A stretch of DNA of 64,000 bases from Saprospiraceae bacterium (GCA_034520175.1 JAXHNU010000028.1:74252-138251), one strand, 5' to 3'. Positions 2,491 to 63,398 are shown, counted from the first letter of the stretch. Numbers and translations are program-made. Notes: generated by a model not told the origin, from the sequence alone.

Positions 2491-3273
2491 ATGCTTTTAA
2501 AAGAAATCATGGCAAAATCTAAGAAACAAAAAATCGTTGCGGGCAACTGGAAAATGAATAAAACATTGCCCGATGCCCTTGCTTTAGCGCAACAAATTGC
2601 GGCAAAAGAATTGCCGAAAGACGTGATTACGGTCTTGTGTGTCCCCTCAGTATTTGCGGCAGAAATCGGCAAAATCATTGGGTCAAATCCTAATTTGAAA
2701 CTCGGCGCACAAAATTGTCATCACGAAGTAAGTGGTGCTTACACGGGCGAAACTTCGGTGGATATGTTGCAAAGTGTTGGTGTTGAATACGTTATCGTTG
2801 GTCACTCCGAGCGTCGTGAATATCAAAACGAAAGCAGCGATGTATTGGTTAAGAAAATAAATTTGCTTTTGTCGAAAGGTATGACGCCTATTTATTGTTG
2901 CGGTGAACCCCTCAGTATTCGGGAAAAAAACCGCCAAAACTCAGCCGTTGCAAAGCAAATCAAAAATGATTTGTATCATTTGGCTGCCGAGCAAATGGCG
3001 AAAATTGTTATCGCTTATGAGCCGATTTGGGCTATCGGTACGGGTTTGACGGCTTCGCCAGAACAGGCGCAAGAAATGCACAATTTTATCCGTCGGACGG
3101 TTAAAAAGCAATTTGGCAACGACATTGCAAAAAATACAACGATTCTTTACGGTGGTTCAGCAAATGCTGCCAATGCTAAAATATTGTTCGCTCAAAAAGA
3201 CGTGGACGGTGGGTTGATTGGTGGGGCATCGTTAAAAGCAGACGATTTTACTACAATTATTGGGTCATATTAA
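2491..3273 (+). CDS. tpiA: triosephosphate isomerase
   Basis: Motifs GNWKMN, GHSERR, AYEPIWAIGTG and GGASLK. The real start is probably the second ATG at 2509 (MAKSKKQKIVAGNWKMN). Confidence 0.95.
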   Translation: MLLKEIMAKSKKQKIVAGNWKMNKTLPDALALAQQIAAKELPKDVITVLCVPSVFAAEIGKIIGSNPNLKLGAQNCHHEVSGAYTGETSVDMLQSVGVEYVIVGHSERREYQNESSDVLVKKINLLLSKGMTPIYCCGEPLSIREKNRQNSAVAKQIKNDLYHLAAEQMAKIVIAYEPIWAIGTGLTASPEQAQEMHNFIRRTVKKQFGNDIAKNTTILYGGSANAANAKILFAQKDVDGGLIGGASLKADDFTTIIGSY

Positions 3274-3289
3274 TTGCTGATGTTACACA

Positions 3290-3336
3290 GAGCCGTAGGC
3301 TCGACCCATATGTATATACACCGAGCCTACGGCTCT
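3290..3336. repeat. palindromic CCTACGG-type hairpin pair downstream of tpiA
   Basis: AGAGCCGTAGGCTCG (3290-3304) and CGAGCCTACGGCTCT (3322-3336) are exact reverse complements. Related short hairpins appear at about 3360-3377, 3392-3404, 41660-41810 and 51650-51730. Confidence 0.6.
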
Positions 3337-3520
3337 TAAATAATTGGTTTTAAACTTTCGGCGGATTGAAATCCGCCGCTACAAAATTGGTCATGCCTAC
3401 GGCATTTTTGGCACATCTGCGTGACATAAGTCAATTAGTTCTACTTTGTTCTTTGAACTGGCTCTTTTTCGCTCGAAAATCGCCCGAAAGTAATTTTTAG
3501 AGGTGAGCGTGTTTTTAAAT

Positions 3521-3704
3521 TTTGAAACCATACATAAATTCAAAATACGCATTAAAAGGCATTTTTGCGCTCGCTTCGCTCGCGCAAAAGGAGGAGAGGT
3601 GGTTCATTTTTCGGGCAAAGCCCGAAAAATGAACCACATTCCCCCTTCGCGCGAGCGAAGCGAGCGCGAAAACCAGCAGTTTAGATTTTATGTATGGTTT
3701 CAAA
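3521..3704 (+). mobile_element. nested-palindrome MITE, type A, full length (184 bp)
   Basis: Same termini and core as 620-803. Perfect 8-bp duplication TTTTAAAT at 3513-3520 and 3705-3712. It is inserted in the middle of another palindrome (GAGCGTGTTTTTAAA at about 3505-3519 and TTTAAAAACACGCTC at about 3737-3751). Confidence 0.88.
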
Positions 3705-3813
3705 TTTTAAATCAGAAAAATCTTCGATTTTTTTGATTTAAAAACACGCTCGCCCCGTAGATTTCTTCCAACAGGCGATTTTTGAGCGAAGCGAAAAAAG
3801 CCAGTAAATATCT

Positions 3814-3821: not shown

Positions 3822-3834
3822 AAATTAAAAAATA

Positions 3835-4617: not shown

Positions 4618-4620
4618 TCT

Positions 4621-5484
4621 ATGAAAAATTATCTCTCGCTTATCAAATTTAGCCACACCATTTTTGCTTTGCCGTTTGCTTTGGTTGGTTTTTTTCTGGC
4701 TACTTATCAGACGGGTAAAAATATTGAATACATTACGCTCATTTTGATTGTGATGTGCATGGTGTTTGCGCGCTCGGCTGCAATGGCATTTAATCGGTAT
4801 TTGGATAGGGATATTGATGCCAAAAACCCGCGTACCATTATCCGCGAGATTCCTGCGGGTGTGGTGTCGCCGACGGCTGCTTTGGTTTTTGTCATTATTA
4901 ATGCTGTTTCATTTATCATTACGACCTATTTTATTAATCCTTTGTGTTTTTATTTATCACCCATTGCTTTACTCGTTGTTTTGGGATATAGCTACACAAA
5001 AAGGTTCACGTCTTTGTGCCATTTTGTACTGGGTTTGGGCTTGTCTTTAGCACCGATTGGCGCGTATTTAGCCGTTACAGGACAGTTTTCTTTACTACCT
5101 ATTTTGTATTCTATTGCCGTTTTACTTTGGGTATCGGGCTTTGATATTATGTACGCTTTGCAAGATGAAGACTTTGATAAGTCATTGAATCTCAATTCTA
5201 TTCCGGTGCGTCTGGGCAGAAAAAACGCTTTGAGACTGTCCGAAATTTTACATATTTTATGTGCTATCGTGATTGTAACTGCCGTTTTTCTCATAAATAC
5301 TGAGGGGGGGAATTTTAGCTATTTGCACCTAATTGGGACAGGTATTTTTATTGGCTTATTGACCTATCAGCACACACTGGTAAAACCCAATGATTTATCG
5401 AAAATAAATATGGCTTTTTTTACCACAAATGGCATTGCAAGTGTGGTGTATGGGAGTTTTTTTATTTTAGACTACTTTTTCTAA
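4621..5484 (+). CDS. UbiA family aromatic prenyltransferase (4-hydroxybenzoate polyprenyltransferase-like)
   Basis: 287-aa polytopic protein with NRYLDRDIDAKNPRT (NxxxDxxxD) and a second Asp-rich motif YALQDEDFD. Confidence 0.85.
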   Translation: MKNYLSLIKFSHTIFALPFALVGFFLATYQTGKNIEYITLILIVMCMVFARSAAMAFNRYLDRDIDAKNPRTIIREIPAGVVSPTAALVFVIINAVSFIITTYFINPLCFYLSPIALLVVLGYSYTKRFTSLCHFVLGLGLSLAPIGAYLAVTGQFSLLPILYSIAVLLWVSGFDIMYALQDEDFDKSLNLNSIPVRLGRKNALRLSEILHILCAIVIVTAVFLINTEGGNFSYLHLIGTGIFIGLLTYQHTLVKPNDLSKINMAFFTTNGIASVVYGSFFILDYFF

Positions 5485-7504: not shown

Positions 7505-7567
7505 CCCCTCAGTATTTTCTATCAAAATCGATGTTTTTCTACTTTTGATAGAAAATACTGAGGAGGT
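7505..7567. terminator. hairpin made of an inverted pair of the TACTGAGGGG motif, downstream of rtcB
   Basis: CCCCTCAGTATTTTCTATCAAAA ... TTTTGATAGAAAATACTGAGGAGG gives roughly 20 bp of pairing, with T/A runs on both sides. Confidence 0.65.
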
Positions 7568-7611: not shown

Positions 7612-9024
7612 TTATCCTTCCTCACTCGCCATTCTTACAATTTTCGGAAAAAATTTACCAATAACGTCCACCAGCGTTTTTTGTGCTGATATCACATCTT
7701 CGATGTTTTTGTAGGCGTGTGGTGCTTCATCAAGTCCACCACCGAGCAATGTTACGCCATTTTTTTCCAACACATCACGCAAAGCACGGTTTGTAAAACT
7801 GTTTTTGGCTTCGCTTCGGCTCATTTTTCGACCCGCGCCATGTGCCGCCGAATTGAGCGAGGCAGCATCACCTTTGCCGCGCACGATATATCCCGCCGCC
7901 GTCATATTGGCGGGAATAATGCCGAGTTCACCGAGTTTTGCGGGTGTTGCGCCTTTTCGGTGTACAATTGCGTCTGTACCGTCCGCTAATTGCTCTTTCC
8001 ACGCAAAATTGTGGTGATTTTCGACCCGAACAAAGGCATCTGCTTTCAGTTCTCGCGCAATTTTTCGATGAATCGTATCGTGGCAAGCGGCAGCGTAAGC
8101 ACCAGCCAAATTCATGGCTGCCCAATATTCTGCACCATCTGATTCGTCGAGTCGCAACCATGCCAAATGTTGAGCGAAATTGGGCAAACGCCGCCTTTTC
8201 ATCGCCAATTGTGTGTAATGCTTCGCAATATTTGCCCCCAAACCCCGTGAACCAGAGTGTGTCAACAAGGCAATGTACTGACCTGCTTTGATGCCCAAAT
8301 CAGCGTCATCGGTCGGAAAATCGGCAATGCCGAACTCTGCAAAATGATTGCTACTGCCCGAAGTTCCGAGTTGCAAAGCGGCTTTTTTCTGCAAATCACG
8401 CAGTAAAGGCAGTTCTTGAAACAAACGATGCTCAATCACCGCGTGGTCTTGCGGTTGTTTCCAAGCCCCGCCCATTCCAAAAATGGTATGCGTTAAAAGG
8501 GATTGTTCAAATGCTTTTTCATGCTTTTTAAACTCCGTTGCCGCAATTGGAAACACCGACAAACACATCCGACAACCAATATCAACACCAACGCCATACG
8601 GAATCACCGCATTGTCCGCCGCCAAAACGCCACCGATTGGTAAGCCATAGCCCGCATGTGCATCGGGCATCAAAGCTCCCGCAACGGTAATTGGCAATTT
8701 CATGGCAACTTTCATTTGTTCCCATGCCAATTTTTCAATATTTTCAGCACCAAAAACCGAAAAGGGGAGTGGTGTATCCAATAATTGTGGCTGCTCTTTC
8801 ACTGGTTCGGGTTCTGGCTTGAGGCGTTCGGCTATTTTGCCCCAAATTGGGTCACGCCAATAGTTTTCGGGTGTCGCCACAAGACCCCTCAGTATTGGCT
8901 CAACTTCTTGAAAAGTTGAATGTTTAAATTCTTTTTCTAAAACACCAATAGCCATGCTGATAGCAGGGGTTTGAGGAAAACCCAACGCCGTCAACTCTTT
9001 CGGCTTTATTTTTAACTTGCCCAT
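7612..9024 (-). CDS. rtcB: RtcB family RNA 3'-phosphate ligase
   Basis: 470 aa. Motifs MPDAHAGYGLPIGGV, HSGSRGLG, NHHNFAW and GGGLDEAPHAYK. Confidence 0.9.
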   Translation of the reverse strand: MGKLKIKPKELTALGFPQTPAISMAIGVLEKEFKHSTFQEVEPILRGLVATPENYWRDPIWGKIAERLKPEPEPVKEQPQLLDTPLPFSVFGAENIEKLAWEQMKVAMKLPITVAGALMPDAHAGYGLPIGGVLAADNAVIPYGVGVDIGCRMCLSVFPIAATEFKKHEKAFEQSLLTHTIFGMGGAWKQPQDHAVIEHRLFQELPLLRDLQKKAALQLGTSGSSNHFAEFGIADFPTDDADLGIKAGQYIALLTHSGSRGLGANIAKHYTQLAMKRRRLPNFAQHLAWLRLDESDGAEYWAAMNLAGAYAAACHDTIHRKIARELKADAFVRVENHHNFAWKEQLADGTDAIVHRKGATPAKLGELGIIPANMTAAGYIVRGKGDAASLNSAAHGAGRKMSRSEAKNSFTNRALRDVLEKNGVTLLGGGLDEAPHAYKNIEDVISAQKTLVDVIGKFFPKIVRMASEEG

Positions 9025-11529: not shown

Positions 11530-12336
11530 ATGCCCGAATTACCAGAAGTAGAAACCTATCGCCGCTACGCCGAAGCCTCCTCCATGCACCAAACCATTGC
11601 CGATTTTACGTGTGAAGACCCGCGCAAACTTCTGCTCAATCCTTACGACGAGATGCTGGAAATACTGAGGGGGTCACATTTTAGCGAAACATATCGCGTG
11701 GGGAAGCACCTTTTTATCCGAATTAGTGAAACCCATTGGGTGTACATGCACTTTGGCATGACGGGCGATTTGCATTATTTTCATCAAGACGATGAGCCGC
11801 CCCGACACGCCCGCATGGTGTTTTATTTTACCAATGGTTTTCGCTTGGGTTTTTTATGCCCGCGCAAATTTGAACGCATTGGCATTGTCGAAAACCCCGA
11901 TGCGTTTTTGAAGAAAAAAGGTATCGCTCCCGACGTAATGATGATTGATAAAAACTTGTTTTTCAACAATTTAAGTCGAAAGAAGTCCGCCATAAAATCG
12001 GTATTGCTCGATCAATCCGTGGTGGCGGGTATTGGCAATTGGCTCGCCGATGATGTTCTGTTTAAAGCTAAAATTCACCCAGAGACCCCCTCAGTATTTT
12101 TGACTGAAAACGACAAAAATCGTATTTTTGATGCCATGCAAAACATCGTACAAACCACCATAGATGCCGAAGCTAACTACAATTTATTGCCCGACGATTT
12201 TATTTTACACGCGAGAGGGTGGGGTAAGCCGCATTTGAGCGGCAAATGTCCTTGTGGAAAAGAGACAATCACAATGATACGAGTTGGCGGACGGGCGACT
12301 TATTTTTGTGAAAATCTGCAAGTCTTAAAATTTTGA
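11530..12336 (+). CDS. Fpg/Nei family DNA glycosylase/AP lyase
   Basis: N-terminal MPELPEVE (catalytic Pro2/Glu3), H2TH segment LLDQSVVAGIGNWLADDVLF, and a Cys-containing zinc-finger-like C-terminus. Confidence 0.85.
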   Translation: MPELPEVETYRRYAEASSMHQTIADFTCEDPRKLLLNPYDEMLEILRGSHFSETYRVGKHLFIRISETHWVYMHFGMTGDLHYFHQDDEPPRHARMVFYFTNGFRLGFLCPRKFERIGIVENPDAFLKKKGIAPDVMMIDKNLFFNNLSRKKSAIKSVLLDQSVVAGIGNWLADDVLFKAKIHPETPSVFLTENDKNRIFDAMQNIVQTTIDAEANYNLLPDDFILHARGWGKPHLSGKCPCGKETITMIRVGGRATYFCENLQVLKF

Positions 12337-12550: not shown

Positions 12551-14025
12551 GTTCTGGCTTCATTTGGAATAACGTGTTTTGCCAAAATACGCTTTCCAAG
12601 CGTTTTACTTTCATCGCTTTTTTTCGTTGCCCACAATTGATCGCTCGCTTTTCTGGCGGAGGTTTTCAAGTCAATTATGGGTTTTAGATAGTCTTTTTCA
12701 AGGTCAAAACTGTAAAAAAGGGCTTCTAAAGCGGGCGTTTTTGATGGTTCGTGAATCAAGTGTGCGGGTAAATTTTGCAATTCGGGTACCCATTTTTTGA
12801 TAAAAACGCCTTCTGGGTCGTGTTTTTCAGAATTGTGCGTGGGGTTGTAAATCCGAATCGTGTTTATGCCCGTTACGCCTGCTTGCATTTGAAATTGAGA
12901 ATAATGAATGCCGGGTTCGTAATCCAAAAACATTTGTGCCAGATAGCCCACACCCGCCTGCCACGGTTGCCAAAGTGTGTGGGTGAGAAATGAAACGACC
13001 ATTGCCCGCATCCGAAAATTTAAGTATCCTGTCGTTTTTACGCACCGCATACACGCATCAATAAGTGGAAAACCCGTTTTGCCCTCTTTCCACGCTTGTA
13101 GGAGGGCATCGTCTGTTTCAGCCCGCAGGTGGTCGTAGGCAGCATTGACGTTGTGAAATTCCATTTCTACTTCGCTTTCAAACTTTTGCATAAAATGATC
13201 GCGCCAACGCAGCCTGTCCAAGAAGTTTTCAAGATTTCGCTTGCCGATTGGATAGGAAGACGCCTGTGCGTATTGAAAAACCTGCCGACTCGACAGGCAA
13301 CCCCAAGCCAAATAAGGCGAAATACGCCCACAATGAAAGCGGGCTGCTTCGGGTTTTGAAATGTTCTTCATGTACTCCTTTCCTCTGTTTTCAAGGAAAG
13401 ATTTGAGGTATTTCCAAGCCGCAATTTCACCACCCTGTTGAAAATCAGAATTGCGTTTAGTGATGTCACTCGGCAAAAGTGACCCCCTCAGTAGGACGTT
13501 GAGTTCTTGTGAGATGAGTTGATTGGCTGCTTTAAATTGCGTTAAATCAGGGTTTTGCATGGGTTTTTCGGCTATTTCCAGCCAGTCATCTTTCCATGTT
13601 TTCCGATTTTTCAAGCCCCGATAAATACCACTCATTCGGCTTTCCTGCCATTGAACACCGTGTTTTTTAAACAGTTTTTTTAAGCGTTTATCTCGTGCGT
13701 AGGTGAAGTTTGTCCCAATTTCTTCGTATGAAAAAACGGTATTTATTGTATAATTTCTCATCAATTGTTCAAAGACAAAATCTGATTCGTTATGACAAAA
13801 TACGATTTCTAAATTATTGATTTTTAAACGATTATTCAAATCTACTAAAGATTCGTACACAAACCGCCAATGCCGTACATTGCTGTCATACTGCTGCATG
13901 AGTGAGGGTTCAAAGATGTATAAGAGCAGTGTTACCCCCTCAGTATTGGACGCATTTTTCAAAGGTTCGTGGTCATGTAAACGCAAGTCTCTTTTAAACC
14001 AGACGATATTTAAGGCTTGTTTCAT
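12547..14025 (-). CDS. cryptochrome/photolyase family protein (FAD-binding)
   Basis: 492 aa. N-terminal [16 protein letters not shown] and a FAD-binding region ...[10 protein letters not shown]...[12 protein letters not shown]...WRDHF...[11 protein letters not shown]. The stop codon lies in the terminal repeat of the element at 12368-12550. Confidence 0.85.
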
Positions 14026-14709: not shown

Positions 14710-14954
14710 TTTTTTTTAACGAATTCACTTTGGAGTTGAAACCTATCATATTGATGTTCTTTTAATCTACTTTACCTCCCGTATTATTACGAAGATTGCG
14801 CTACAAAACTAAGCTTTTGTGGTTACATTTTATCTAAAGGGCTGATAACTTTTTCAATAGTGTATTTTAACCTTCTTTAATCCATCACGAAGACCCCCCT
14901 CAGTATTTTTCAACCTTTTTCGCCAAATGACTGTTTGAGTATAAAAATAATTTT

Positions 14955-15659
14955 ATGCTCAACAAAAACATTCTTATCGTTGGTGCGAGTTCTGGCATTG
15001 GTGCCGCACTTGCCGCGTCAATCCATTTGAAAGGCGCGAACGTCTATTCTGCTTCACGGCACGAAGGCGAGACCCCCTCAGTATCACACATCAATTTTGA
15101 CGCAAAAGCACCTGATTACACGGCTTTCGCGCAATTGCCCGATGTGATTCACGGCTTTGTATATGCTCCGGGAACAATTAACCTAAAGCCCTTCGGACGG
15201 CTGGCTCAAGCTGATTTTCAGAATGATTTTCAGATAAATGTCTTGGCAGCAGTGGGTATTTTACAAGCTATTTTGCCAAAATTGAAACGCGCAGAAGGGG
15301 CAAGTGTTGTCCTTTTTAGCACCGTTGCCGTGCAGACGGGTATGGGTTTTCACTCGTCGGTAGCTGTTTCAAAAGGTGCAATTGAAGGTTTGACGCGCTC
15401 TTTGGCGGCTGAGTTTGCCATACAAAAAATCCGCGTCAATTGTGTCGCTCCTTCGTTGACGGACACGCCTTTGGCTAAACAATTGTTGGCAACCGATGAG
15501 AAAAAAGAAGCAAGCAACCGCCGCCACCCAATGGGGCGTTATGGCACGCCGCAAGATGTGGCAAATGCCGCCGCGTTTCTTTTGGGTGATGAATCAAGTT
15601 GGGTAACAGGTCAGATTTTGGGGATTGATGGCGGTATGGGAAGTTTGAAAATGGTGTAA
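14955..15659 (+). CDS. SDR family oxidoreductase
   Basis: 234 aa. Rossmann motif VGASSGIGAALA and an SDR-length layout with NCVAPSLTDTPL. Confidence 0.88.
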   Translation: MLNKNILIVGASSGIGAALAASIHLKGANVYSASRHEGETPSVSHINFDAKAPDYTAFAQLPDVIHGFVYAPGTINLKPFGRLAQADFQNDFQINVLAAVGILQAILPKLKRAEGASVVLFSTVAVQTGMGFHSSVAVSKGAIEGLTRSLAAEFAIQKIRVNCVAPSLTDTPLAKQLLATDEKKEASNRRHPMGRYGTPQDVANAAAFLLGDESSWVTGQILGIDGGMGSLKMV

Positions 15660-17135: not shown

Positions 17136-17172
17136 AAAAAGATACCTCAAAGAAGGTAAAATACTGAGGGGG

Positions 17173-18491: not shown

Positions 18492-18566
18492 CAAAAAGGT
18501 CGTTTTGCAGCAGTCATTTTAAAAAAAACGGGGTCGTATTTTGGCAAAATCCAAAATACGACCCCT
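18492..18566 (+). repeat. about 75-bp direct repeat (right) flanking the Rpn gene
   Basis: CAAAAAGGTCGTTTTGCAGCAGTCATTTTAAAAAAAACGGGGTCGTATTTTGGCAAAATCCAAAATACGACCCCT. Its 3' end merges into a CCCCTCAGTA motif copy. Confidence 0.8.
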
Positions 18567-19004
18567 CAGTAAAAATGTGATTTTTTTGTAAAAAGACTCT
18601 TTTTCAGCCTATTTTTGAAAAAAAGATTAAGTTTGTCGATATTTTTCATTAAACAAATGATAAAAATGGCGAATAGAACATTTGGGCAGTCTAAACCAGC
18701 CACCAACACCAGAACAAGGAGCTAAGATATTCACTGACCATGACATGAAAGTAGTTGGACGGCCATTACAATTTTAAAGTACTCGATGACAAAAAAAGCG
18801 GCGTACAACATGGGTTTGTGGCAAGTGGGGCGGACGGAAGATATTGAACATTAGGAATTCTTTTGTACTTTTGTTTCGTCGGACGGAAACCTACTGAACT
18901 TTTGTAAGTAATTGAACAGCACTAATTTATATCGGCGGACGTTCGGGCGGACGTGTTTCAAATTCCCCACCTGCAACACAAGCCCTATTCGTTCATTATA
19001 AATG

Positions 19005-19049
19005 AAAAATACTGAGGGGGTAGCCAAGCAACACGCTGGGCTGCCTTTT
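19005..19049 (+). repeat. 44-45-bp module: AAAATACTGAGGGGG + terminator-like hairpin + T-run (copy 1)
   Basis: AAAAATACTGAGGGGGTAGCCAAGCAACACGCTGGGCTGCCTTTT. The stem is AGCCAAGC/GCTGGGCT with one mismatch and the loop is AACAC. Confidence 0.85.
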
Positions 19050-20331: not shown

Positions 20332-20375
20332 AAAATACTGAGGGGGTAGCCAAGCAACACGCTGGGCTGCCTTTT
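20332..20375 (+). repeat. same module (copy 2), identical over 44 bp to copy 1
   Basis: AAAATACTGAGGGGGTAGCCAAGCAACACGCTGGGCTGCCTTTT, 8 nt after the GDCCVxC stop. Confidence 0.85.
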
Positions 20376-21645: not shown

Positions 21646-21753
21646 TAAAATGCTAATTCAAGCATTTTCAAGCCACAATACTGAGGGGGTAGCACAACAC
21701 TATCCCTAAATGTTAAAGTGTAAAAAAAATCGAAGCCTTGTCATTTTTAATTC

Positions 21754-21788: not shown

Positions 21789-22118
21789 ATGTACGCCAAA
21801 ACAATAGGATTTGATACCGATTTACAAGCACTTGCCGTAGCCGCAAAGTTGTTGGCGCACCCTGCTCGAATAGCGATTATCAAATTATTGGCAGAAAAAA
21901 AGACGTGCATTTCGGGCGATATTGCCAACGAATTGCCCCTCAGTAGGGCAACTGTTTGTCAGCATTTGCAAGAACTCAAAAACGCCGATTTGATACAAGG
22001 CGAAGTGAGTGGTTTGAATGTAAACTATTGCTTGAATGTAGAAAAATGGCAATCCGTAAAGGCTCAATTTGATAGCTTATTTGACATCACAACAAAGAAT
22101 ATTAATTGCAACTGTTAA
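21789..22118 (+). CDS. arsR: ArsR family transcriptional regulator
   Basis: 109 aa. LAHPARIAIIKLL...CISGDIANELPLSRATVCQHLQELK. Confidence 0.85.
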   Translation: MYAKTIGFDTDLQALAVAAKLLAHPARIAIIKLLAEKKTCISGDIANELPLSRATVCQHLQELKNADLIQGEVSGLNVNYCLNVEKWQSVKAQFDSLFDITTKNINCNC

Positions 22119-22130: not shown

Positions 22131-22898
22131 ATGAAAATTGCACTTTTTAGCGACATTCACGCCAATTTACCCGCTTTACAAGCCGTTTTAGCCGATATTG
22201 ACCGCCGAAATCCCGACTTGATTTATTGTTTGGGCGATTTGGTCGGCTATGCACCCTATCCAAACGAGGTAGTTAACGAAATTCGGAAACGTAAAATTCC
22301 GACAATTGCGGGCAATTACGATGAAGGCATTGGTCTGAAATCTGATGAATGTGGCTGCGCCTACAAAGCACCCGAAGAAAAAAGCAATGGTGCTATTTCA
22401 ATTGCTTACACCAATAATCTTGTGTTGCCCGAAGAACGCGCCTATTTGAAAAACCTGCCCCGACATTTTGCCCTTGATTTTGAGCATAATGCCGAGAAAT
22501 TTAAGTTTCTAATGGTGCATGGCAGCCCGCGCAAAATCAACGAATATCTGTTTGAAGACCGTGACGAAAAAAGCCTCATGCGCATTATGGAGTTCGGCAA
22601 CGCGGATATTATGGCTTTTGGGCATACGCACAAACCGTATCACCGAATTTTGAAAAATACTGAGGGGGGTACTTTTCGCCACGCCATCAATATTGGTTCG
22701 GTAGGCAAACCCAAAGACGGTGATAATCGGGCGTGTTATGTTATTTTGGACATCAATCCTGAAACTTCTATGAAAAATCCCGACAGCCTAAAAGTGGAAT
22801 TTGTGCGCGTTGCTTACGATTTTGAAAGCATTGCAAAGGCAATTGAGGAAAGCCCTTTACCCAATGATTTTGCGGATATGCTGCGAAAAGCGTATTGA
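22131..22898 (+). CDS. metallophosphoesterase family protein
   Basis: 255 aa. Motifs FSDIHAN, GDLVGY, GNYD, VHGSP and FGHTH. Confidence 0.85.
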   Translation: MKIALFSDIHANLPALQAVLADIDRRNPDLIYCLGDLVGYAPYPNEVVNEIRKRKIPTIAGNYDEGIGLKSDECGCAYKAPEEKSNGAISIAYTNNLVLPEERAYLKNLPRHFALDFEHNAEKFKFLMVHGSPRKINEYLFEDRDEKSLMRIMEFGNADIMAFGHTHKPYHRILKNTEGGTFRHAINIGSVGKPKDGDNRACYVILDINPETSMKNPDSLKVEFVRVAYDFESIAKAIEESPLPNDFADMLRKAY

Positions 22899-23676: not shown

Positions 23677-23767
23677 ACCAACCACTGATAAAGTGTAAAA
23701 TATGATGCCTTTGGCTTCATCAAGCTGAAAGCATGACTGAGGGGGGTGAAAAAATAAAAATTCAAAA

Positions 23768-25338: not shown

Positions 25339-25406
25339 TGCTTTAACCTTATACTTACCTCAACTATAAGTAAGATACTGAGGGGGTACTAATTCATAAA
25401 AAAAAC

Positions 25407-26621: not shown

Positions 26622-26666
26622 GGGGGTAATTTTCGATTAACAATCCATTTTTATTGACAAATTTTA
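26616..26666 (+). repeat. about 52-bp direct repeat preceding the PAP2 gene
   Basis: TACTGAGGGGGTAATTTTCGATTAACAATCCATTTTTATTGACAAATTTTA. Confidence 0.85.
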
Positions 26667-26677
26667 GACATATTCGT

Positions 26678-27568: not shown

Positions 27569-27621
27569 TACTGAGGGGGGTAATTTTCGATTAACTATCC
27601 ATTTTTTATTAACAAATTTTA
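27569..27621 (+). repeat. about 52-bp direct repeat preceding the DUF2911 gene
   Basis: TACTGAGGGGGGTAATTTTCGATTAACTATCCATTTTTTATTAACAAATTTTA. It differs from the 26616 copy by two homopolymer indels and two substitutions. Confidence 0.85.
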
Positions 27622-40994: not shown

Positions 40995-41035
40995 TACTGA
41001 GGGGGGGAGTCAAGCAACACGCTGGGCTACCTTTT
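40995..41035 (+). repeat. same module (copy 3, diverged)
   Basis: TACTGAGGGGGGGAGTCAAGCAACACGCTGGGCTACCTTTT. Confidence 0.8.
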
Positions 41036-41918: not shown

Positions 41919-41958
41919 TAACTGAGGAGGTGCCAAGTAACACGCTGGGCTGCCTTTT
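41919..41958 (+). repeat. same module (copy 4, diverged), abutting a truncated repeat element
   Basis: TAACTGAGGAGGTGCCAAGTAACACGCTGGGCTGCCTTTT. Confidence 0.8.
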
Positions 41959-43678: not shown

Positions 43679-43793
43679 TTCTAATTTTACAAAAATAGGA
43701 CATTTATGACCCGAATTCATAAAATTACGAGGGGACTATTTTGAAGCATTTAGCGACAAAATAGACCCCTCAGTAAACAAGTTAGGAAATATT

Positions 43794-48264: not shown

Positions 48265-48948
48265 CGGATATACGACTATTTGATGCCTAAATGCCCATCG
48301 CCAACGCACCTCAAAACGGCTCACTCCAGACTGTCCCAAAAGCTCTAACCATTCCTTTTTTTTGAACCCCCTCAGTACCGAAAGTGGGGCGTCGTTTTTG
48401 ACCAAATACGATTTTGAAAACAACTGCGTTAAAAATTTTATGGCGTAATAAGCAATCGAATTTCTTTCCAAATCATTGACAATCAACGTTATTTTTTGTT
48501 TTTGAGCGTACTGAATCAAGTCCAAAATTTGTTCTTCCGTGAGGTGATGACAGAATAAACAAGCATGTAGAATGTCTATCTTTTCTAAGTGCAGATGCAC
48601 ATTTCGATAGTCATCGGTGATGAATTTTATGGACTGATTGGGTTTGTTTGTTTCGGCATAAACCGTGCAATCGCGCTTCAAGTCCACGCCGATTAAGTCC
48701 AAATCGAAGCCCTGTTTTTTGTTCCAATGGGCGATGTATTTCAACGTATCGCCGCCGCCACAACCGATGTCCACCAAGACCGTTTTCCTGTTTCGGGGCA
48801 ACACGCGTTTCAAGACATTGAGCGAAATAGCGTAGCCACCAAGCCATGTGTTGATGAAGTCCAATTCTTTCAAATTTTGGTACAAATCAAGCGGTGGAAT
48901 GTCGTTGTTGTCCAACAATTCTTTGGTATAATGGCGATTTTTAAACAT
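48259..48948 (-). CDS. class I SAM-dependent methyltransferase
   Basis: 229 aa. Motif I VLVDIGCGGGD. Confidence 0.85.
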   Translation of the reverse strand: MFKNRHYTKELLDNNDIPPLDLYQNLKELDFINTWLGGYAISLNVLKRVLPRNRKTVLVDIGCGGGDTLKYIAHWNKKQGFDLDLIGVDLKRDCTVYAETNKPNQSIKFITDDYRNVHLHLEKIDILHACLFCHHLTEEQILDLIQYAQKQKITLIVNDLERNSIAYYAIKFLTQLFSKSYLVKNDAPLSVLRGFKKKEWLELLGQSGVSRFEVRWRWAFRHQIVVYPL

Positions 48949-50092
48949 AAGTCAATACGGCAGTTTCGATGTTTAGACCCGGTCCAAAGGCGGCAGTTAT
49001 AATGTCTTCCCCCCTCAGTATGTCGGTGTTTTCCAATAAGTTTTTCAGAACAAAAAGGATTGTAGGTGATGACATATTGCCGAAGTTTCGGAGCGTTTCG
49101 TAAGACGCTTTCAATGCTAATGGGTTGATATTGATTGTTTTACAAAAATCGTCCAATATCTTTTTGCCACCTGGGTGTACCGCCCAATGCGTCGTTTTTT
49201 CGGCGTTGAGTTCCATACCTTCCAACAAAATCGGCATGTATTTATTGATGAGTGGCGAGACATAACTCGTCAAATTCATCTTAAAACCTTCTTCCGAAAG
49301 TTGCCACGCCATTTCGTCGCGCCCTTCGTGAATGACCAAAGACTTGAAGGATTTTATGGCTACGGATTTGAAAGATTTTGAAACTTTTGAACTTGGAGAA
49401 ACTTTCAAACTTTCCCCAATTTGTTCAAACGCTTGTTCAGAAGCGGGTTTTGAACCAACTAAAACTGCCGCCGCACCGTCCGCAAAGATTTGATTTGAAA
49501 TCAAATAATCGTCGTCAAACGCACCTTGAAAATGAAGCGTACACAACTCAACGCAGACGATTAAAACCAAGGAATTGTCTTCGCTTCGACAAATTTGATG
49601 CGCTTGTTTCAACGCCAACATTGCCGCATTACAACCCATGAAATTAATGCTACTGCGTTGCGTAGTTGGTTTTAAATCAAGGACTTGCATTAATTCAATA
49701 TCCAACCCTGGTGCAAAAAGCCCCGTGCAAGTGACGGTGACGATGTGCGTAATCTCGTTTTTTAGCGTCTCAAAACTTTTGATTTTGCGAACGCTTTTTT
49801 CTGCCAAATATAGGGCTTCTTTTTTGTAAATCTGCATCCGTTGCGTCAAAGAAGGGGCGGGAGTGAGCAAAGGATTTTGTGGAAAAAACGAAAAATACTG
49901 AGGGGGTAGCGAAAAATCTTTGATGACGGAATAGCGCGTGTCAATGCCGCTTTTGTGGGCAACTGCACGGATTTTGCGTTTTGTGCGCTCCGCCTCGCCT
50001 GCGGCATTGCAGTAAAATTCGGTGAAATTTTCTCTTGTGTGACAAAATTCAGGATTAGCCGTTTCGATGCACCAGATATGACTCATTGCCAC
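48941..50092 (-). CDS. type III polyketide synthase (chalcone/stilbene synthase family)
   Basis: 383 aa. The Cys-His-Asn triad contexts are VTCTGLFAPG, WAVHPGGKKIL and FGNMSSPTILF. Confidence 0.9.
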   Translation of the reverse strand: MAMSHIWCIETANPEFCHTRENFTEFYCNAAGEAERTKRKIRAVAHKSGIDTRYSVIKDFSLPPQYFSFFPQNPLLTPAPSLTQRMQIYKKEALYLAEKSVRKIKSFETLKNEITHIVTVTCTGLFAPGLDIELMQVLDLKPTTQRSSINFMGCNAAMLALKQAHQICRSEDNSLVLIVCVELCTLHFQGAFDDDYLISNQIFADGAAAVLVGSKPASEQAFEQIGESLKVSPSSKVSKSFKSVAIKSFKSLVIHEGRDEMAWQLSEEGFKMNLTSYVSPLINKYMPILLEGMELNAEKTTHWAVHPGGKKILDDFCKTININPLALKASYETLRNFGNMSSPTILFVLKNLLENTDILRGEDIITAAFGPGLNIETAVLTYV

Positions 50093-52767: not shown

Positions 52768-53465
52768 ATCCAACTTTCACTTCTGCTGTGCCTTTTGGCA
52801 TCTCTCTTTTGTTCTTAATTCTTATCCCAATTCCTGTCTTTTTGATAGCTTTATTGGGCAAAAAAGGTGCGCCGACCCCTCAGTATAATAGCGTATTTTG
52901 GACTATTTTGGGCTTCTACGGCGTGTATTTTACCTACGTAGCCGTGGCTTGTTTCAAAGGCGTATTTGCCGAAGAGAGTCTGCCGCCCAAGATTTTGCAA
53001 GTTTCTACCTTGCCCTTGCTGCTGTTTTTGACTCTTGTGGTTTTCAATTTGCCGATTTGCAAAAAGATTGTGGCGAATATCCAAACGGCTGATTTGGTGC
53101 GGCTGCATGGCTTTCGGCTTATCGGTGGCTTTTTCATTATCTTGGCATTTTACGGCGCAATACCACTAACATTTGCATTGATTGCGGGTTTAGGTGATAT
53201 TTTGACAGCAATTACGAGTGTTTTTGTCGCAAACGCCATTGAAACCAATAAACCTTACGCCCGAAAGTTGACCCTTGTGTGGAACACTTTTGGTTTTTTG
53301 GACATCATTTGCATTGCGGTCATGGCTTTTGTTTTGACAAAAATTGCGATAGAAACGGGCGCACAAGGTGTTGATACTTTGGGGCAATTCCCGTTTTGTT
53401 TCATTCCTGCTTTTGCACCGCCGACCATTCTTTTTTTACACCTTATCATATATCTAAAAATTTGA
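52764..53465 (+). CDS. hypothetical polytopic membrane protein
   Basis: 233 aa, about 6 TM. ATGA coupling to the Crp gene. The TGA stop is supplied by the TTTGAAACC terminus of the element at 53461. Confidence 0.65.
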   Translation: MNPTFTSAVPFGISLLFLILIPIPVFLIALLGKKGAPTPQYNSVFWTILGFYGVYFTYVAVACFKGVFAEESLPPKILQVSTLPLLLFLTLVVFNLPICKKIVANIQTADLVRLHGFRLIGGFFIILAFYGAIPLTFALIAGLGDILTAITSVFVANAIETNKPYARKLTLVWNTFGFLDIICIAVMAFVLTKIAIETGAQGVDTLGQFPFCFIPAFAPPTILFLHLIIYLKI

Positions 53466-53644: not shown

Positions 53645-53744
53645 ATCGAAAAATACTGAGGGGGTAATAAATTGTCTTTAAAAAATATTTTTTCCATTTT
53701 TCGCTTTCTTGTCCTATGACAAGAATCACCTTTTGACACCCTCT

Positions 53745-55135: not shown

Positions 55136-55273
55136 ACCCCCTCAGTATTTTCGACACTTCACTCCTCAAAAAGTGCAGTTCAGTTAGTTCTTTTTGTCGT
55201 GATTTGAAACGCGGTGCATCTTTGAGCCATCAAAAGAAATTAATTTAATCAATTATTAAACAATTTTTGGCTT

Positions 55274-55585: not shown

Positions 55586-55690
55586 GGGGAGGAAGGTTTT
55601 AAGATGTCAATTCAGAAAGGGCAAGTCATTTTAACCCCCTCAGTATTTTTAGTATTTTTGGTATTTTCAATCACTTAACAAACATTTTCG

Positions 55691-57856: not shown

Positions 57857-58008
57857 AAACCTTTCAGGTTTCACCGATTCCCCCTCAGTATTCAGCCGTT
57901 TTTTCTTCGTGTTCGTCCGTTTTTTTCTTGTTTTAGTCAAATTTTTTTTGCTGATAGAGTCATAAAGTGCTTAATTGCAGACATATTATCATCTTTAAAA
58001 ATGACAAA

Positions 58009-58500: not shown

Positions 58501-58616
58501 TAGATACCACTCAGTATCGTGATAGCGACGTTTATAAATGCTATACAGATTTAGGAAATCTAAACCGTTGAAAATCAATAAACCAAATAAAAAATTCAAA
58601 TAAAAAAAATCAGTCT

Positions 58617-59903: not shown

Positions 59904-60006
59904 ATTCGACCCCCTCAGTATTTTTATCAAAAAATGTCCTTGTAACAAAACTACAACCAACACAGTCAACCTCTTGAATACTTTCTAAAAATTTAATAAA
60001 AACGTT

Positions 60007-62436
60007 ATGAAAAAGCTACTATTCTTATTTTTACTATTAAGCCAACTCATAAATGCCCAAACGAACGGTACGATTAAAGGTCGCGCCGTTGACAGTACGT
60101 CTCAAAAACCCGTCGAATTTGCGAGTGTCGCTCTGTTGTTGGCGGAGGATTCTTCGCTTGTGAAGGGAGCGATTACCGATTCTTTGGGCTTGTTTTCCCT
60201 CAATAATTTGGCGGAAGGCAGCTATATTATTATGGTATCGAGCGTCGAGTACCGCAAGATTTCTAAAGGACCGTTGGTGATTACGGTCAATCAAAATGAG
60301 TTGGATTTAAAAGATTTGGCTTTAACAACCGATGATAAAGCCTTGTCAGAATTTGTAGTACTGGGCAATAAACCCGTTTTTCAACAAAAAATGGGCAATA
60401 TTATCGTGAATGTTGATGCCAAAATGTTTAAAACGTCGGTCAATGCGCTTGAAATTATGCGCCGTTCACCAGGCTTGTTGGTCAATACGAATGGCGATAT
60501 TTCTTTTCGAGGAACGAGTCCGAAAATATTGATTGACGGTCGAGATTTGCGGATGTCGCCAGAACAAGAAAAAAACTATTTGCGCTCGCTCGCCCCCGAA
60601 CAAATAGAGAGCATCGAACTCATGCCCAATCCGCCCGCGAAGTACGAATCGTCGTTTGCGACGGTGATTAACATCAAGCTGAAACGCGACCCAAACTTGG
60701 GCTTCAAAGGCAGTGTTTACGGTTCGATTCAACAACACCGCTTCACAAATGGCGAATTTGGGGGCAATTTGACCTACAAAACACCAAAAATGGCGTACTC
60801 GCTCAACGTGGGTTTGTCGAAAAGTGATTCTTACCAAGAATTGACCGACCGCCGTGTGTTAGGAGCGACGACCGAAAAAGATATTTTTGAGTCATTTTCG
60901 TACATAAAAAACCCGTATCGAGGGCTGAATGTGGTGGCGGGTGCGGAATTCACCATCAACCCCAAACACTCGATTGACTTCAAATTGACGGGCGATATCA
61001 ATAACTCAAACAGTTGAACGTATGCCCAAAATAAATCAAATATCGGGCGGGTTGAACAACCTTTTTTGGTGAGTACAAATCAAATGACCGATGAAGGTAA
61101 AAGTTTGACGGGGTTATTGGGCTATCGTTTTAAAACGGACAAGCAAGAGTTTATCGTTGAATTGGCGGCTGCCGACAACCAAAAACCGGGTTCGCAAGAC
61201 TTGATTTCGGAATATCTCCGCAATAATGTTCCCGTTCGTGGCATCACAAGACAGCGCAATCAACAAGGGGTTAGTTCCAATTTTAAAACGCTCAATGTGA
61301 CTTACAGCGATTTATTGGCTAAAAATTGGCAATTTGAGACGGGTTTTAAGATAAATTACGTGCAGAACCTATCCACTATTCGGTTTGATACGTTGCTCAA
61401 AACCAACGCAACAAGAGAAACGCCTTTGACCGATGCCGATTTTGGCAAAGATGCGCGGCGTAGTAACGTCTTCAATTTTGATGAAAATGTCAATATGTTT
61501 TTTGTTCAATTGGGTCGTCAATACAACAAACTTAGCGTTTTGGCGGGCGTTCGAGCGGAAAATACGGTTACGGAAGGGCGTTCTGAAGCCGTTAATTCGG
61601 CGGTCAATCGCAACTATTGGAACGTTTTACCGACATTGACGATGCAATATAAAGTCGGCGAAAGTAGCAATTTGGTATGGGCAACTTCGCGTAAAATCTC
61701 GCGCCCCAGTGTTTGGCAACTCAACCCATTCCCATTCTTTTTAGACCCTTTTACGGTCGCTCTGGGCGACCCGTTTTTGTTTCCACAGATACGCACAGCG
61801 AGCGAATTGACGTATTCTTATAAAAATTTGATGCTCATTGGTGGGTACAATCATTATAAAAATCAAACGACTCAACTCCCTTTGTACAATGACAAAACGA
61901 ACCTAACAACGTGGCAACAAATCAATATCAAAGGGCAACGGTTCTTTTTTGACGTGAGTCATTCTGCTCCAATTTTGCCTAAATGGAACTATCAAGTTTA
62001 CATAAGCACGGCTTACGCGGGTGAGCAAGCGGACATCAACAACCGCGAAAATAAAAGCAGTGGTTTCACGGCTTCGGCTTGGTTGACCAATATGTTTAAT
62101 TTGCCGAAAGGCTACAATTTGGAGGTTTCGGGGTGGTACAATGTGCCAAACCAAGCGGGTTTGTTTAGGTCAAAAGGCATGGGCGCGGTCAATTTGGCTT
62201 TGCAAAAAAGTTTTTTGGACAATAGATGGAACGTTCAACTTAACGCAAATGACATCTTTTGGACAAGTATTTTCAGAGGGGCAATTTTGGTGGACAATTC
62301 AGATATAAATTTCACGAATCGGCAACCGAACCGTAATGCCTCGCTGCGGGTAACGTACAATTTTGGCAAATCTAAGTTTCAGTCCCAAGGACGGAAGTCG
62401 GGTGTGGGTGAAGATGCAGCGCGGATTAAAAGATAA
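60007..62436 (+). pseudogene. TonB-dependent receptor / outer-membrane beta-barrel (CarboxypepD_reg-like N-terminus) interrupted by one in-frame TGA
   Basis: ORFs 60007-61017 and 61066-62436 are in the same frame (61066-60007 = 1059 = 3 x 353). They are separated only by the TGA at 61015-61017, and the 16 codons between them are open (TYAQNKSNIGRVEQPF). Confidence 0.75.
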
Positions 62437-62470
62437 CCCCTCAGTATTTTTACTAAAATTCACATAAAAT

Positions 62471-63349
62471 ATGACCAAAACAATCTTTTTTCTACTCTTT
62501 TCAATCTTTTTAATCGGCTGCAAAGAGACCCCAAAAGACGAATCAACGGCTCTAACGCATTTTGAAACAATGGATTATGTCAAAGTTGGGCAGTTATTTG
62601 ATTCCATAAAAACGCCTTATATCATTGATATTTCAAATGGTAAAAAGCGGCTTGTTTTTGTGGGTTGCGACCACCAAGTGCCTGCAACGCATCCACAATT
62701 TGCGGCGATTCAACGCTTGTTTTGGGATTTGAAACCGCAAATGACGTTCAATGAAGGTGGGCAATATACTGATTCTTTGCGCTATGAAAATTACCAAAAA
62801 GCCATTGGAAAAGACGGAGAAAGCGGTGCGTTGAAGTATTGGTCGGACAGTTTGCACGTCAAAATGATGAATGGTGATTTGAGTGCCAAAGAGGAGTTTG
62901 CGCTCACGAGCCGCTATCACACGCAAGAAGAATGGTATTTGTATTATATTATGGAGCGTTGCATTGTGCCTTTTATCTATAATAATAAAGGCGGAAAACT
63001 GCCTTTTGATTCGGTTTTTAACCAAAATATGAATCGTTATTTTTTGAAAAATGGCTTAAAAATAACGGACGAACAACGCTCTTTTGCCCATTTCAAAACG
63101 GTGTATCAAAAAAACATGGCCAAGCCTTTTGACCTTAAAAATGTGGACATCGAAGCCTTTGATTATGTCAATCCTGATTGTCGGTTTTGTGCCGTCGGGC
63201 GGATTTCCAAAATGGTGCGTGACAGTGTTTTATTGACCAAAATTGACGATGCTTTGACTAATTTTGATAGAGTTATGGTGACTTTTGGGCATGGTCACGC
63301 TTTGGCGATTGAACCTGCGTTGCGGCAAATTGTGAATAAGAAGCGGTAA
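62471..63349 (+). CDS. hypothetical lipoprotein
   Basis: 292 aa. Lipobox FLIGC near the N-terminus. Confidence 0.6.
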   Translation: MTKTIFFLLFSIFLIGCKETPKDESTALTHFETMDYVKVGQLFDSIKTPYIIDISNGKKRLVFVGCDHQVPATHPQFAAIQRLFWDLKPQMTFNEGGQYTDSLRYENYQKAIGKDGESGALKYWSDSLHVKMMNGDLSAKEEFALTSRYHTQEEWYLYYIMERCIVPFIYNNKGGKLPFDSVFNQNMNRYFLKNGLKITDEQRSFAHFKTVYQKNMAKPFDLKNVDIEAFDYVNPDCRFCAVGRISKMVRDSVLLTKIDDALTNFDRVMVTFGHGHALAIEPALRQIVNKKR

Positions 63350-63398
63350 TAGCCCCCTCAGTATTTGGATTAAATTTTAAAAATTTTACATAAAAAGT

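Follow-up and report, generated by a model that had tools for sequence, protein, structure and literature searches.

Why does one short word recur, letter for letter, throughout the DNA of a Saprospiraceae bacterium, inside its housekeeping genes as well as between its genes? The question arises from a 64,000-nucleotide stretch (GCA_034520175.1, JAXHNU010000028.1:74252-138251; hereafter the window) of a metagenome-assembled genome (MAG), which encodes housekeeping, repair, type I restriction-modification and resistance genes (Pfam), and in which the asymmetric, G-rich word TACTGAGGGG (complement CCCCTCAGTA) is found at a density of about one copy per 1.6 kb. The Fpg protein encoded there shows 100% identity to MDZ7878775.1, which is annotated as coming from a Saprospiraceae MAG. 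An earlier note on this DNA had likened the word to the DNA uptake sequences (DUS) of Neisseria and the uptake signal sequences (USS) of Haemophilus. The word is real, shared across a lineage and previously undescribed; in the literature we found no description of it, and no uptake sequence for Bacteroidota, Bacteroidetes or Saprospiraceae. We put at an even chance the reading that it is an uptake signal of the DUS/USS type, spread by molecular drive.

Abundance, exactness and lineage distribution of the word

The window contains exactly 40 copies of TACTGAGGGG, 16 on the plus strand and 24 on the minus strand (Table 1), where chance would supply 0.03 (dinucleotide-preserving shuffles) or 0.02-0.08 (Markov models of order 1 to 5, trained on the word-masked window). 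The count and the hyper-abundance reported earlier are confirmed, and the comparison with a higher-order Markov expectation, which the earlier note had proposed, places the word far above expectation in the window. Of the coordinates first given for the 40 copies, 24 were exact, 15 were off by 1-2 nt and one by 10 nt; three of the four near-copies (7556, 23735 and 58507) carry one mismatch, and the fourth (41920) carries two. The sub-words CTGAGGGG and TACTGAG are present 41 and 44 times, i.e. almost never outside the full word, which is therefore a discrete unit. Exact copies far outnumber mismatched ones, with 40 exact, 3 one-mismatch and 16 two-mismatch copies in the window, and 532 exact versus 79 one-mismatch copies in relatives. 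The extended consensus is aaATACTGAGGGGgt, with the flanks (a)aATACTGAGGGG(g)t as proposed earlier, and information content drops to background beyond about 15 bp. The word measures 10-14 bp and differs from its own reverse complement; its copies are spaced more evenly than random (coefficient of variation of the gaps 0.72 versus 0.96, P = 0.02).

One genome per species was scanned with AATACTGAGGGGGT, which returned at least 115 stretches. Among the matches listed, Saprospiraceae MAGs of 20 species accounted for 105 of 115 and a MAG labelled simply Bacteroidota for one, while the nine from other taxa each had a single, chance-level copy. The word-bearing MAGs, which judging by their record names derive mostly from glacier-fed or alpine streams, carry 0.27-0.93 core copies per kb after subtraction of the seeding match. 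Loci of TpiA homologues were fetched without reference to the word, four of them from word-bearing lineages: the word was the top 10-mer in three, where its copies numbered 16 (20.7 kb), 14 (20.8 kb) and 15 (16.2 kb), and the fourth (L214) contained only 4 copies in 14.4 kb. Given these loci, and the background-level information beyond about 15 bp, the copies extend beyond the window and do not belong to a single longer mobile repeat; the earlier note had named both confinement to the window and such a repeat as fatal to its observation.

A second form of the word was found in locus L216 (GCA_046051005.1), whose TpiA is 64% identical to that of the window. This locus contains 18 copies of TACTGGGGGG in 20.8 kb, 13 of them intergenic, and no TACTGAGGGG; shuffles give 0.00. 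Among the 532 exact A-type copies and 79 one-mismatch variants of the A-dialect genomes there is no G-type copy, i.e. the A and G dialects are mutually exclusive among related species. Another lineage, L219, carries the G word at the first of two word sites in tpiA (site 1, see below), and in a neighbour-joining tree of TpiA the A lineages and the G lineages each form one clade. As read from these genomes, the G word is a one-base dialect of the A word. Five further Saprospiraceae-like TpiA lineages (L217, L220, L221, L222 and L223) had neither word and yielded no further dialect; a C dialect TACTGCGGGG, predicted to lie behind 'PAV' variants of TpiA, was looked for and was not present; and a metagenome scan with the G-dialect 14-mer gave 120 matches, all chance singletons, and no dense contig.

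The word is also present in (pro)phages. The A-dialect 14-mer matched 97 stretches in IMG/VR, of which 83 had a single, chance-level core copy and nine had three or more copies, with a maximum of 11 in 14.4 kb, which is host density. Two word-dense stretches encode a terminase, a virion protein and a ParB-methyltransferase, and in phage-like contigs the word also occurs inside the terminase gene. The control scan of IMG/VR with the G-dialect 14-mer gave 64 matches, all singletons. Temperate phages of Pasteurellaceae are known to accumulate USS up to host level, unlike large lytic ones (PMC6776037).

The two longest word-free stretches of the window lie at 29.1-34.6 kb and 43.8-48.4 kb. The former, which is the longest, holds an arsenic-resistance-like cluster (30294-31847: DUF6428, a low-molecular-weight phosphatase/ArsC-type gene and an MIP channel), and the latter holds a low-GC islet with an AAA_21 (AbiEii-type) gene; in agreement with the earlier note, there is no copy in the islet, i.e. 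none between 43766 and 48368. The word is thus missing from the islet, the ars region and 23 spans of a palindromic repeat, a small sample that hints at a depletion in DNA probably acquired recently.

Placement, protein imprint and phased flanks

About half of the copies in the window are intergenic, in the ~21% of the sequence that is non-coding (rough gene model). The earlier statement that about half are genic stands, at 20-23 of 40 copies in a window that is ~79% coding, the range depending on three doubtful small open reading frames (ORFs). It had placed the other half within a few to about 70 nt of stop codons; this is true of about half of the intergenic copies, the others lying 97-820 nt away or in divergent promoter regions. 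Among 614 pooled copies, 35% fall in the 17% of the DNA that is non-coding (400 genic, 214 intergenic), i.e. the word is 2.6-fold enriched between genes. The genic copies comprise 196 sense and 204 antisense, so that orientation is unrelated to gene direction, as the earlier note had claimed; its gene assignments are supported by Pfam, tpiA, fpg and the photolyase gene having two copies apiece, and rtcB and hsdM a single one. All five stop-free frames are used (ILRG/LLRG, NTEGG/DTEGG, PLS, PSV and PQY), and the sixth reads TAC TGA, of which the TGA at 26619-26621 is a real stop codon. What is conserved is, as claimed earlier, a DNA word and not a peptide, occupying permissive genic sites by substitution and in both orientations.

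The word has left an imprint on housekeeping enzymes. TpiA site 1 reads (T/P/V)PSVF in the window and in ~40 of its closest homologues, and canonical (T/P)PF(I/V)HL in more distant Saprospiraceae and other Bacteroidota; its codons are CCC TCA GTA TTT in the window and in three sampled relatives with an intact word, with one mismatch in L214. Site 2 reads EPLSIRE through a Ser (AGT) at a residue that is K/R/E/D/P/A elsewhere, and a word-less lineage with EPLSIRE encodes this peptide by other codons (CCG CTC TCA ATA). In Fpg, ILRG is specific to the clade, and only the four closest relatives have TPSVF in place of a variable segment. The residues at TpiA site 2 and at the two Fpg sites are variable ones. 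Alignments of both proteins are gap-free at the sites, with segments of normal length, which bears out the proposal of substitutions rather than insertions. The imprint follows the dialect: L219 has TGC CCC CCC CCA GTA TAT at TpiA site 1, the G word encoding PPV versus PSV in the A dialect, and L216 still encodes PPSVY, by CCA TCG GTT, which fits the erosion of a former word through synonymous changes. A housekeeping-enzyme residue that tracks the dialect is a new hallmark. As a side observation, the tpiA ORF of the window has 260 aa versus 254 aa in homologues, an upstream start being likely.

Orthologous loci display the turnover of the word. L214 and L215 are syntenic with 73.5% identity, and L215 has seven words in the aligned region, which in L214 correspond to two exact copies, two with one mismatch, one with three mismatches and two without counterpart. 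In other orthologous pairs, at 68-85% DNA identity, word positions are conserved, and in one pair the words have opposite orientations at the same intergenic spot. The word turns over by point substitution, with retention above neutral expectation. L214, which stems from a glacier-fed-stream metagenome, has one-mismatch versions where L215 has exact words, and the word may be decaying in this lineage.

A/T content around 565-614 pooled copies oscillates with a period of 10.25-10.5 bp over ~50 bp on each side. Upstream peaks are located at -2, -12, -21, -32 and -43, A/T varying between 0.43 and 0.86, and weaker downstream peaks at +16, +27, +36, +47 and +57; the amplitude is alike whether the copies are genic (400) or intergenic (214). 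Around AATAC, AAATA and GAGGGG, used as control anchors, A/T is flat (0.58-0.69), which rules out helical phasing as a general property of these genomes. A and T are about equally frequent at the peaks, which suggests a structural need for DNA that is curved or rigid on one face, and not shared ancestry. The flanks of the G dialect are phased too, and in register with these: A/T is 0.10 at -7 and 1.00 at both -12 and +16/+17.

Few copies are closely paired: among 621 copies there are 13 pairs within 100 bp, six inverted and seven direct, and the direct ones often flank terminator-like hairpins. Word-hairpin-word arrangements of direct pairs 66-78 bp apart, with mutually unrelated hairpins, were seen in L003 (2623/2693), L017 (776/851), L078 (129/207), L091 (543/609) and L009 (1655/1721). 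In L216, an inverted G-dialect pair between convergent genes (12171-12204) has a ~15-bp perfect stem (CCCCCCCAGTATTTC ... GAAATACTGGGGGGG), like the terminators made by DUS pairs.

Table 1. Copies of the word and spans of the palindromic element in the window. The last column gives the start position in the earlier note where it has been corrected.
Feature	Position	Strand	Context	Earlier start
Exact word	2643..2652	-	tpiA (2491-3273 +), antisense; V-P-S-V, TpiA site 1	
Exact word	2908..2917	-	tpiA, antisense; E-P-L-S-I, TpiA site 2	
Exact word	5298..5307	+	UbiA-family gene (4621-5484 +), sense; NTEGG	
Exact word	7505..7514	-	intergenic; 97 nt downstream of rtcB stop	
Exact word	8885..8894	-	rtcB (7612-9024 -), sense; ILRG	
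Exact word	11663..11672	+	fpg (11530-12336 +), sense; ILRG, clade-specific peptide	
Exact word	12087..12096	-	fpg, antisense; TPSVF, variable segment, closest relatives only	12086
Exact word	13484..13493	-	photolyase gene (12547-14025 -), sense; LLRG	13483
Exact word	13936..13945	-	photolyase gene, sense; NTEG	13935
Exact word	14896..14905	-	intergenic, divergent genes; 49 nt upstream of SDR gene	14894
Exact word	15074..15083	-	SDR gene (14955-15659 +), antisense; TPSV	15073
Exact word	17162..17171	+	intergenic; 1 nt from stop of PD-(D/E)XK gene (17173-18189 -)	
Exact word	18562..18571	-	intergenic	
Exact word	19010..19019	+	intergenic; heads repeated word+hairpin module	
Exact word	20336..20345	+	intergenic (overlap only with doubtful 75-aa ORF); word+hairpin module	
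Exact word	21679..21688	+	intergenic; 33 nt past stop of 21253-21645	
Exact word	21936..21945	-	ORF 21789-22118 (+), antisense; PLS	
Exact word	22658..22667	+	metallophosphoesterase gene (22131-22898 +), sense; NTEGG	22668
Exact word	25376..25385	+	intergenic; 37 nt past stop of 24553-25338	
Exact word	26616..26625	+	overlaps gene end; TGA of word is stop codon of 25407-26621	
Exact word	27569..27578	+	3 nt past stop of 26654-27565; start region of 27549-28472	
Exact word	29121..29130	+	class-V aminotransferase gene (28615-30108 +), sense; TTEGL	
Exact word	34645..34654	-	intergenic; 16 nt past stop of hsdR C-terminal ORF	34643
Exact word	35976..35985	+	hsdR ORF (34671-36695 -), antisense; DPSV	
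Exact word	36865..36874	-	hsdR N-terminal ORF (36697-37773 -), sense; DTEGG	36863
Exact word	37956..37965	-	between hsdR and hsdM (overlap only with doubtful 98-aa ORF)	
Exact word	39837..39846	+	hsdM (39152-40699 -), antisense; TPQY	39836
Exact word	40995..41004	+	intergenic, divergent genes; word+hairpin module	
Exact word	43766..43775	-	intergenic; 139 nt past SulP stop; last before 4.6-kb gap over low-GC islet	
Exact word	48368..48377	-	methyltransferase gene (48259-48948 -), sense; VLRG	48367
Exact word	49011..49020	-	type III polyketide synthase gene (48941-50092 -), sense; ILRG	49009
Exact word	49896..49905	+	type III polyketide synthase gene, antisense; PPQY	
Exact word	52876..52885	-	ORF 52764-53465 (+), antisense; TPQY	
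Exact word	53654..53663	+	intergenic; 9 nt beyond palindromic element 53461-53645	
Exact word	55138..55147	-	intergenic; 70 nt past stop of 54531-55067	55137
Exact word	55636..55645	-	intergenic; 50 nt past stop of 55274-55585	55635
Exact word	57881..57890	-	between 56506-57597 and 57967-58500 (overlap only with doubtful 83-aa ORF)	57880
Exact word	59911..59920	-	intergenic; 7 nt past stop of 58617-59903	59910
Exact word	62437..62446	-	intergenic; directly past stop of 61066-62436	
Exact word	63354..63363	-	intergenic; 4 nt past stop of 62471-63349	63353
One-mismatch copy TACTGAGGAG	7556..7565	+		
One-mismatch copy GACTGAGGGG	23735..23744	+		
One-mismatch copy TACTGAGTGG	58507..58516	-		
Two-mismatch copy AACTGAGGAG	41920..41929	+	heads diverged word+hairpin module	
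Palindromic element	620-804			
Palindromic element	3521-3705			
Palindromic element	10269-10414			
Palindromic element	12368-12506			
Palindromic element	18202-18387			
Palindromic element	32445-32630			
Palindromic element	47344-47529			
Palindromic element	50124-50394			
Palindromic element	53461-53645			
Palindromic element	shorter fragments			

Several repeats accompany the word or lie near it. A module of word, hairpin (GTAGCCAAGCAACACGCTGGGCTGCC) and T-run is found at 19008-19055, 20334-20381 and 40993-41040, and in diverged form at 41920-41960, upstream of MerT-HMA, DUF6597 and NUDIX genes; about 45 nt beyond it lies TACATTTGTGGCAA, which resembles the -7 promoter element of Bacteroidota. 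The words at 26616 and 27569 are each followed by the same ~30-nt sequence, GTAATTTTCGATTAAC(A/T)ATCCATTTTT (26626-26655 and 27579-27610), ahead of two consecutive genes. A second, unrelated repeat family of the window consists of an intergenic palindrome of ~185 bp (TATGTATGGTTTCAAA ... GCGCGAGCGAAGCGAGCGC ... GGCAAAGCCCGAAAAATGAACCAC, followed by the mirror image; 23 spans), whose 10-16-mers are as frequent as the word and which matches contig ends of MAG GFS_12016 (L042 and L073) with 84-90% identity. A tie between the word and this element was ruled out, no word lying within the 23 spans.

Two genes of the window appear split. The hsdR gene forms two adjacent minus-strand ORFs, 36697-37773 (HSDR_N and the start of the helicase) and 34671-36695 (the rest), with a word in each, which suggests a frameshift, a pseudogene or a sequencing error; a TonB-dependent-receptor-like gene seems divided into 60007-61017 (plus strand; CarboxypepD_reg, Plug) and 61066-62436 (plus strand; OMP beta-barrel). 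Other loci contain short tandem repeats unrelated to the word, namely TATCACAA, about eightfold, at 12619-12690 of L217 (its top k-mers) and an AACTCAT-type heptamer array providing the top 10-mers of L218. In L223, a DNA polymerase III alpha gene at 1209-6023 has an intein with a LAGLIDADG domain (precomputed Pfam).

A proposed uptake signal and its alternatives

The word displays most of the genomic hallmarks by which DUS and USS are recognised (PMC7811141, PMC3630211, bioRxiv 10.1101/2025.10.24.684340). It is dense, exact, evenly spaced and symmetrical with respect to transcription; it is enriched between genes and occupies permissive sites within them; and it has AT-tract flanks, is conserved with dialects and, in a small sample of phage-like contigs, accumulates in phages. 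The likeness first drawn by the earlier note has held, and is strengthened by the lineage-wide conservation, the dialect, the phased AT flanks, the excess of exact copies, the even spacing, the turnover by point mutation and the apparent accumulation in (pro)phages. AT tracts, even spacing and molecular drive have been described for uptake sequences (PMC7811141), as have dialects (PMC3630211).

Biased uptake of conspecific DNA followed by recombination is the most economical mechanism, and from the genome data we infer an uptake function, a receptor and competence. aaATACTGAGGGGgt with its helically phased A/T tracts would be the preferred recognition sequence of the DNA-import machinery of this Saprospiraceae clade. 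Word-carrying fragments from relatives would be bound and taken up preferentially and would then recombine into the chromosome, and point mutations that create or perfect the word would therefore be over-transmitted (molecular drive), while those that destroy it would be replaced. Exact copies would gradually fill permissive sites (intergenic DNA and variable parts of proteins), in either orientation and with fairly even spacing. The tracts, phased at ~10.4 bp, may offer a bent or rigid face that aids binding or kinking of the duplex, and a change of receptor in one lineage may have moved the preferred word from TACTGAGGGG to TACTGGGGGG, old copies decaying at synonymous sites.

Several points weigh against an uptake signal. 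The reading rests on sequence, the hosts being uncultured and known as MAGs. No competence gene is present among the genes of the 64-kb window (Pfam), and a crude regular expression found no class-III (type IV pilin) signal motif in the ORFs of ~1.1 Mb of word-bearing loci. The phasing spans 4-5 helical turns on both sides, which could equally mean wrapping by a cytoplasmic protein. Frequent inverted terminator pairs are lacking, with six inverted pairs among the 621 copies and the one pair in L216. Orientation is not fully random along the DNA: 82 pooled blocks of ~8 kb show over-dispersion (chi-square 142, P = 4e-5), and the local skew was fitted at 0.67, i.e. a local co-orientation of about 2:1, and the comparison with GC skew proposed in the earlier note gave a weak correlation (rho 0.31, P = 0.005). 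The blocks of orientation described there thus find weak support, also from a cumulative-sum (CUSUM) test in the window (P = 0.028) but not from a runs test (P = 0.41); orientation showed no correlation with gene strand. The two-sided phasing over ~100 bp, the few inverted pairs, the weak co-orientation and the lack of a pilin signal keep other explanations alive: an architectural protein that wraps the DNA, a bias of packaging on the donor side, or a conversion bias within the cell.

Somewhat unlikely, in our judgement, is that the word is no uptake signal but the core of a new genome-wide self-mark, an asymmetric 10-14-bp site centring ~100 bp of curved DNA that a DNA-wrapping protein would recognise in order to tell self from non-self, to package DNA or to organise the chromosome, and that would spread by an undescribed conversion-type drive. 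If so, this drive would have sufficient strength for rewriting housekeeping proteins and for a change of dialect from one lineage to another.

It is unlikely that the word is the binding site of an abundant DNA-wrapping or architectural protein, kept by selection on chromosome structure instead of transfer bias. The ~10.4-bp A/T phasing over ~100 bp centred on the word, as expected of bent or wrapped DNA, speaks for such a protein, as do the fairly even spacing, the weak local co-orientation correlated with GC skew and the word in resident (pro)phages. However, selection site by site would have to change residues of housekeeping enzymes at thousands of sites, and known nucleoid-protein sites are degenerate or number tens to hundreds. 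Both the sharp excess of exact copies and the clean change of dialect bear the mark of a drive, and the word is absent from likely recent acquisitions.

Two further readings we regard as improbable. In the first, the word would bias transfer at a step other than uptake, e.g. as a pac-like packaging signal of a gene-transfer agent or phage-like particle, with the drive on the donor side. The genomic signatures of drive fit it equally, the word reaches host density in contigs that encode terminase and virion proteins and lies even within the terminase gene, and phased A-tracts are a feature of some pac sites of terminase small subunits. Yet the window encodes no gene-transfer-agent or terminase gene (Pfam), the gene-transfer agents known to us package DNA without sequence specificity, and only a handful of IMG/VR contigs are word-dense. 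Temperate phages of USS hosts accumulate USS passively, so no packaging role is needed for the phage copies (PMC6776037).

In the second, to which we assign the same low probability, the word would be a HIP1-like product of sequence-biased repair or gene conversion within the cell, with no role in DNA transfer. Spread by substitution in genic and intergenic DNA, a lineage-specific distribution and presence in (pro)phages replicating in the same cells would all follow. The likeness to HIP1 fails, however, as the word is not palindromic, and the phased flanks are left unexplained; we know of no repair system that reads an asymmetric site of 10-14 bp with ~100 bp of phased flanks.

That the word is an architecture motif with polarity, read on one strand relative to replication as are Chi (RecBCD/AddAB) and the FtsK-orienting polar sequences (KOPS) and SpoIIIE recognition sequences (SRS) of FtsK/SpoIIIE, is very improbable. 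The word is G-rich and asymmetric, its local co-orientation exceeds chance (P = 4e-5, q = 0.67), and the CUSUM result and the weak GC-skew correlation point the same way. Against this, overall strand use is 297:324 among 621 pooled copies, orientation flips about four times within 64 kb (runs P = 0.41), and a dialect with an amino-acid imprint and phased flanks are no features of Chi or KOPS. The block-wise polarity, in which the earlier note had seen a Chi- or KOPS-type signature, was rejected as such on the overall strand use, the local skew of only about 2:1, the several flips and the length of the word, which is far longer than polar motifs.

Barely credible is a transcription or RNA signal (terminator, promoter element, RNA motif) or a remnant of a small mobile repeat (miniature inverted-repeat transposable element, MITE, or repetitive extragenic palindrome, REP): intergenic enrichment, the many copies 0-40 nt past stop codons, three copies heading a conserved hairpin and T-run module and some direct pairs flanking terminator-like hairpins favour it, but it is largely refuted by the orientation symmetry (196:204 relative to transcription) and the in-gene substitutions, 65% of pooled copies being genic, the word not palindromic, inverted pairs rare, no sequence conserved beyond ~15 bp, genic copies free of indels, exact copies far more numerous than decayed ones, and the real palindromic repeat family of the window never holding the word.

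The word is ready for use as a marker, in binning and in host assignment, of these stream Saprospiraceae and of their phages. If it is an uptake signal, sequence-specific DNA exchange may exist in a new phylum, Bacteroidota, and the A/G dialect pair would provide a direct comparative handle on the receptor. If it is not, the word represents an unexplained genome-wide drive.

Comparison with known systems

The word was compared with the USS of Pasteurellaceae (Hin-USS AAGTGCGGT, Apl-USS ACAAGCGGT), the DUS of Neisseriaceae (GCCGTCTGAA and its dialects, with the receptor ComP), the cyanobacterial HIP1 (GCGATCGC) and polar motifs. HIP1 is a hyper-abundant, lineage-specific short word, both genic and intergenic, that spread by substitution through an unresolved mechanism. 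It is an 8-bp palindrome linked to methyltransferase sites, whereas the word studied here is asymmetric, has 10-14 bp, ~100 bp of phased flanks and a one-base dialect, and differs from its reverse complement. With Chi and KOPS it shares asymmetry, G-richness and some strand clustering. Motifs of this type measure 5-8 nt, with 75-95% skew, strong replichore polarity and a far lower density; in the window the word is divided 16:24 between the strands, with several flips. Nor does it resemble MITE or REP elements, having no long unit beyond ~15 bp, no genic indels and few decayed copies.

Like the DUS of Neisseriaceae, the word is an exact 10-12-mer with thousands of copies per genome; its dialects lie one or a few bases apart, map onto phylogeny and are nearly exclusive to a genome, and it is enriched between genes and near gene ends (PMC3630211). 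Both of its dialects contain CTG, the invariant DUS core, which is a curiosity only, there being no sequence similarity beyond CTG. A crude signal regular expression found no pilin-type receptor in ~1.1 Mb. We know of no phased AT flanks in DUS. About half of DUS lie in predicted terminators, many as inverted repeats (bioRxiv 10.1101/2025.10.24.684340), whereas single copies dominate here.

Compared with the USS of Pasteurellaceae, the sequence of the word is unrelated and its phylum is Bacteroidota. As a Saprospiraceae word without kinship to GCCGTCTGAA or AAGTGCGGT, it falls outside the sequence families of DUS and USS. Haemophilus USS have two AT tracts on one side, whereas the phasing here is two-sided over 4-5 turns. 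Overlapping inverted terminator pairs are rare here (6/621), and the word is weakly co-oriented locally, a property that to our knowledge has not been described in classical USS. Other features are alike in both. A 9-12-mer at about one per kb, far above expectation, is found in both (here 40 copies versus at most 0.08, and 0.3-0.9 per kb in relatives), USS having a density of ~1 per 1-1.6 kb and, like the word, an asymmetric core in both orientations (PMC7811141). Shared as well are the many genic copies in permitting frames, the relatively even spacing, flanking AT tracts on the helical repeat and distinct dialects in related clades (PMC7811141). USS are also under-represented in newly acquired DNA and accumulate in temperate phages (PMC7811141, PMC6776037); in the small samples available here, the islet, the ars region and the repeat spans have no copy and a few phage-like contigs are word-dense, which may reflect the same tendencies.

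Sequence-specific uptake marks are known from only two proteobacterial families, their receptor being established in one and only predicted in the other (bioRxiv 10.1101/2025.10.24.684340). Within the Bacteroidota, Riemerella columbina is naturally competent and prefers its own DNA, for which only A-rich k-mers were found (PMC7965970). If the word is an uptake signal, it would be the first DUS/USS-type system outside Proteobacteria, and new at the level of the phylum. An independent Bacteroidota system with two dialects would then constitute a third natural replicate of how uptake specificity and genomes co-evolve, and would bear on whether molecular drive alone can reshape proteomes and on what reads such words in a competent phylum.

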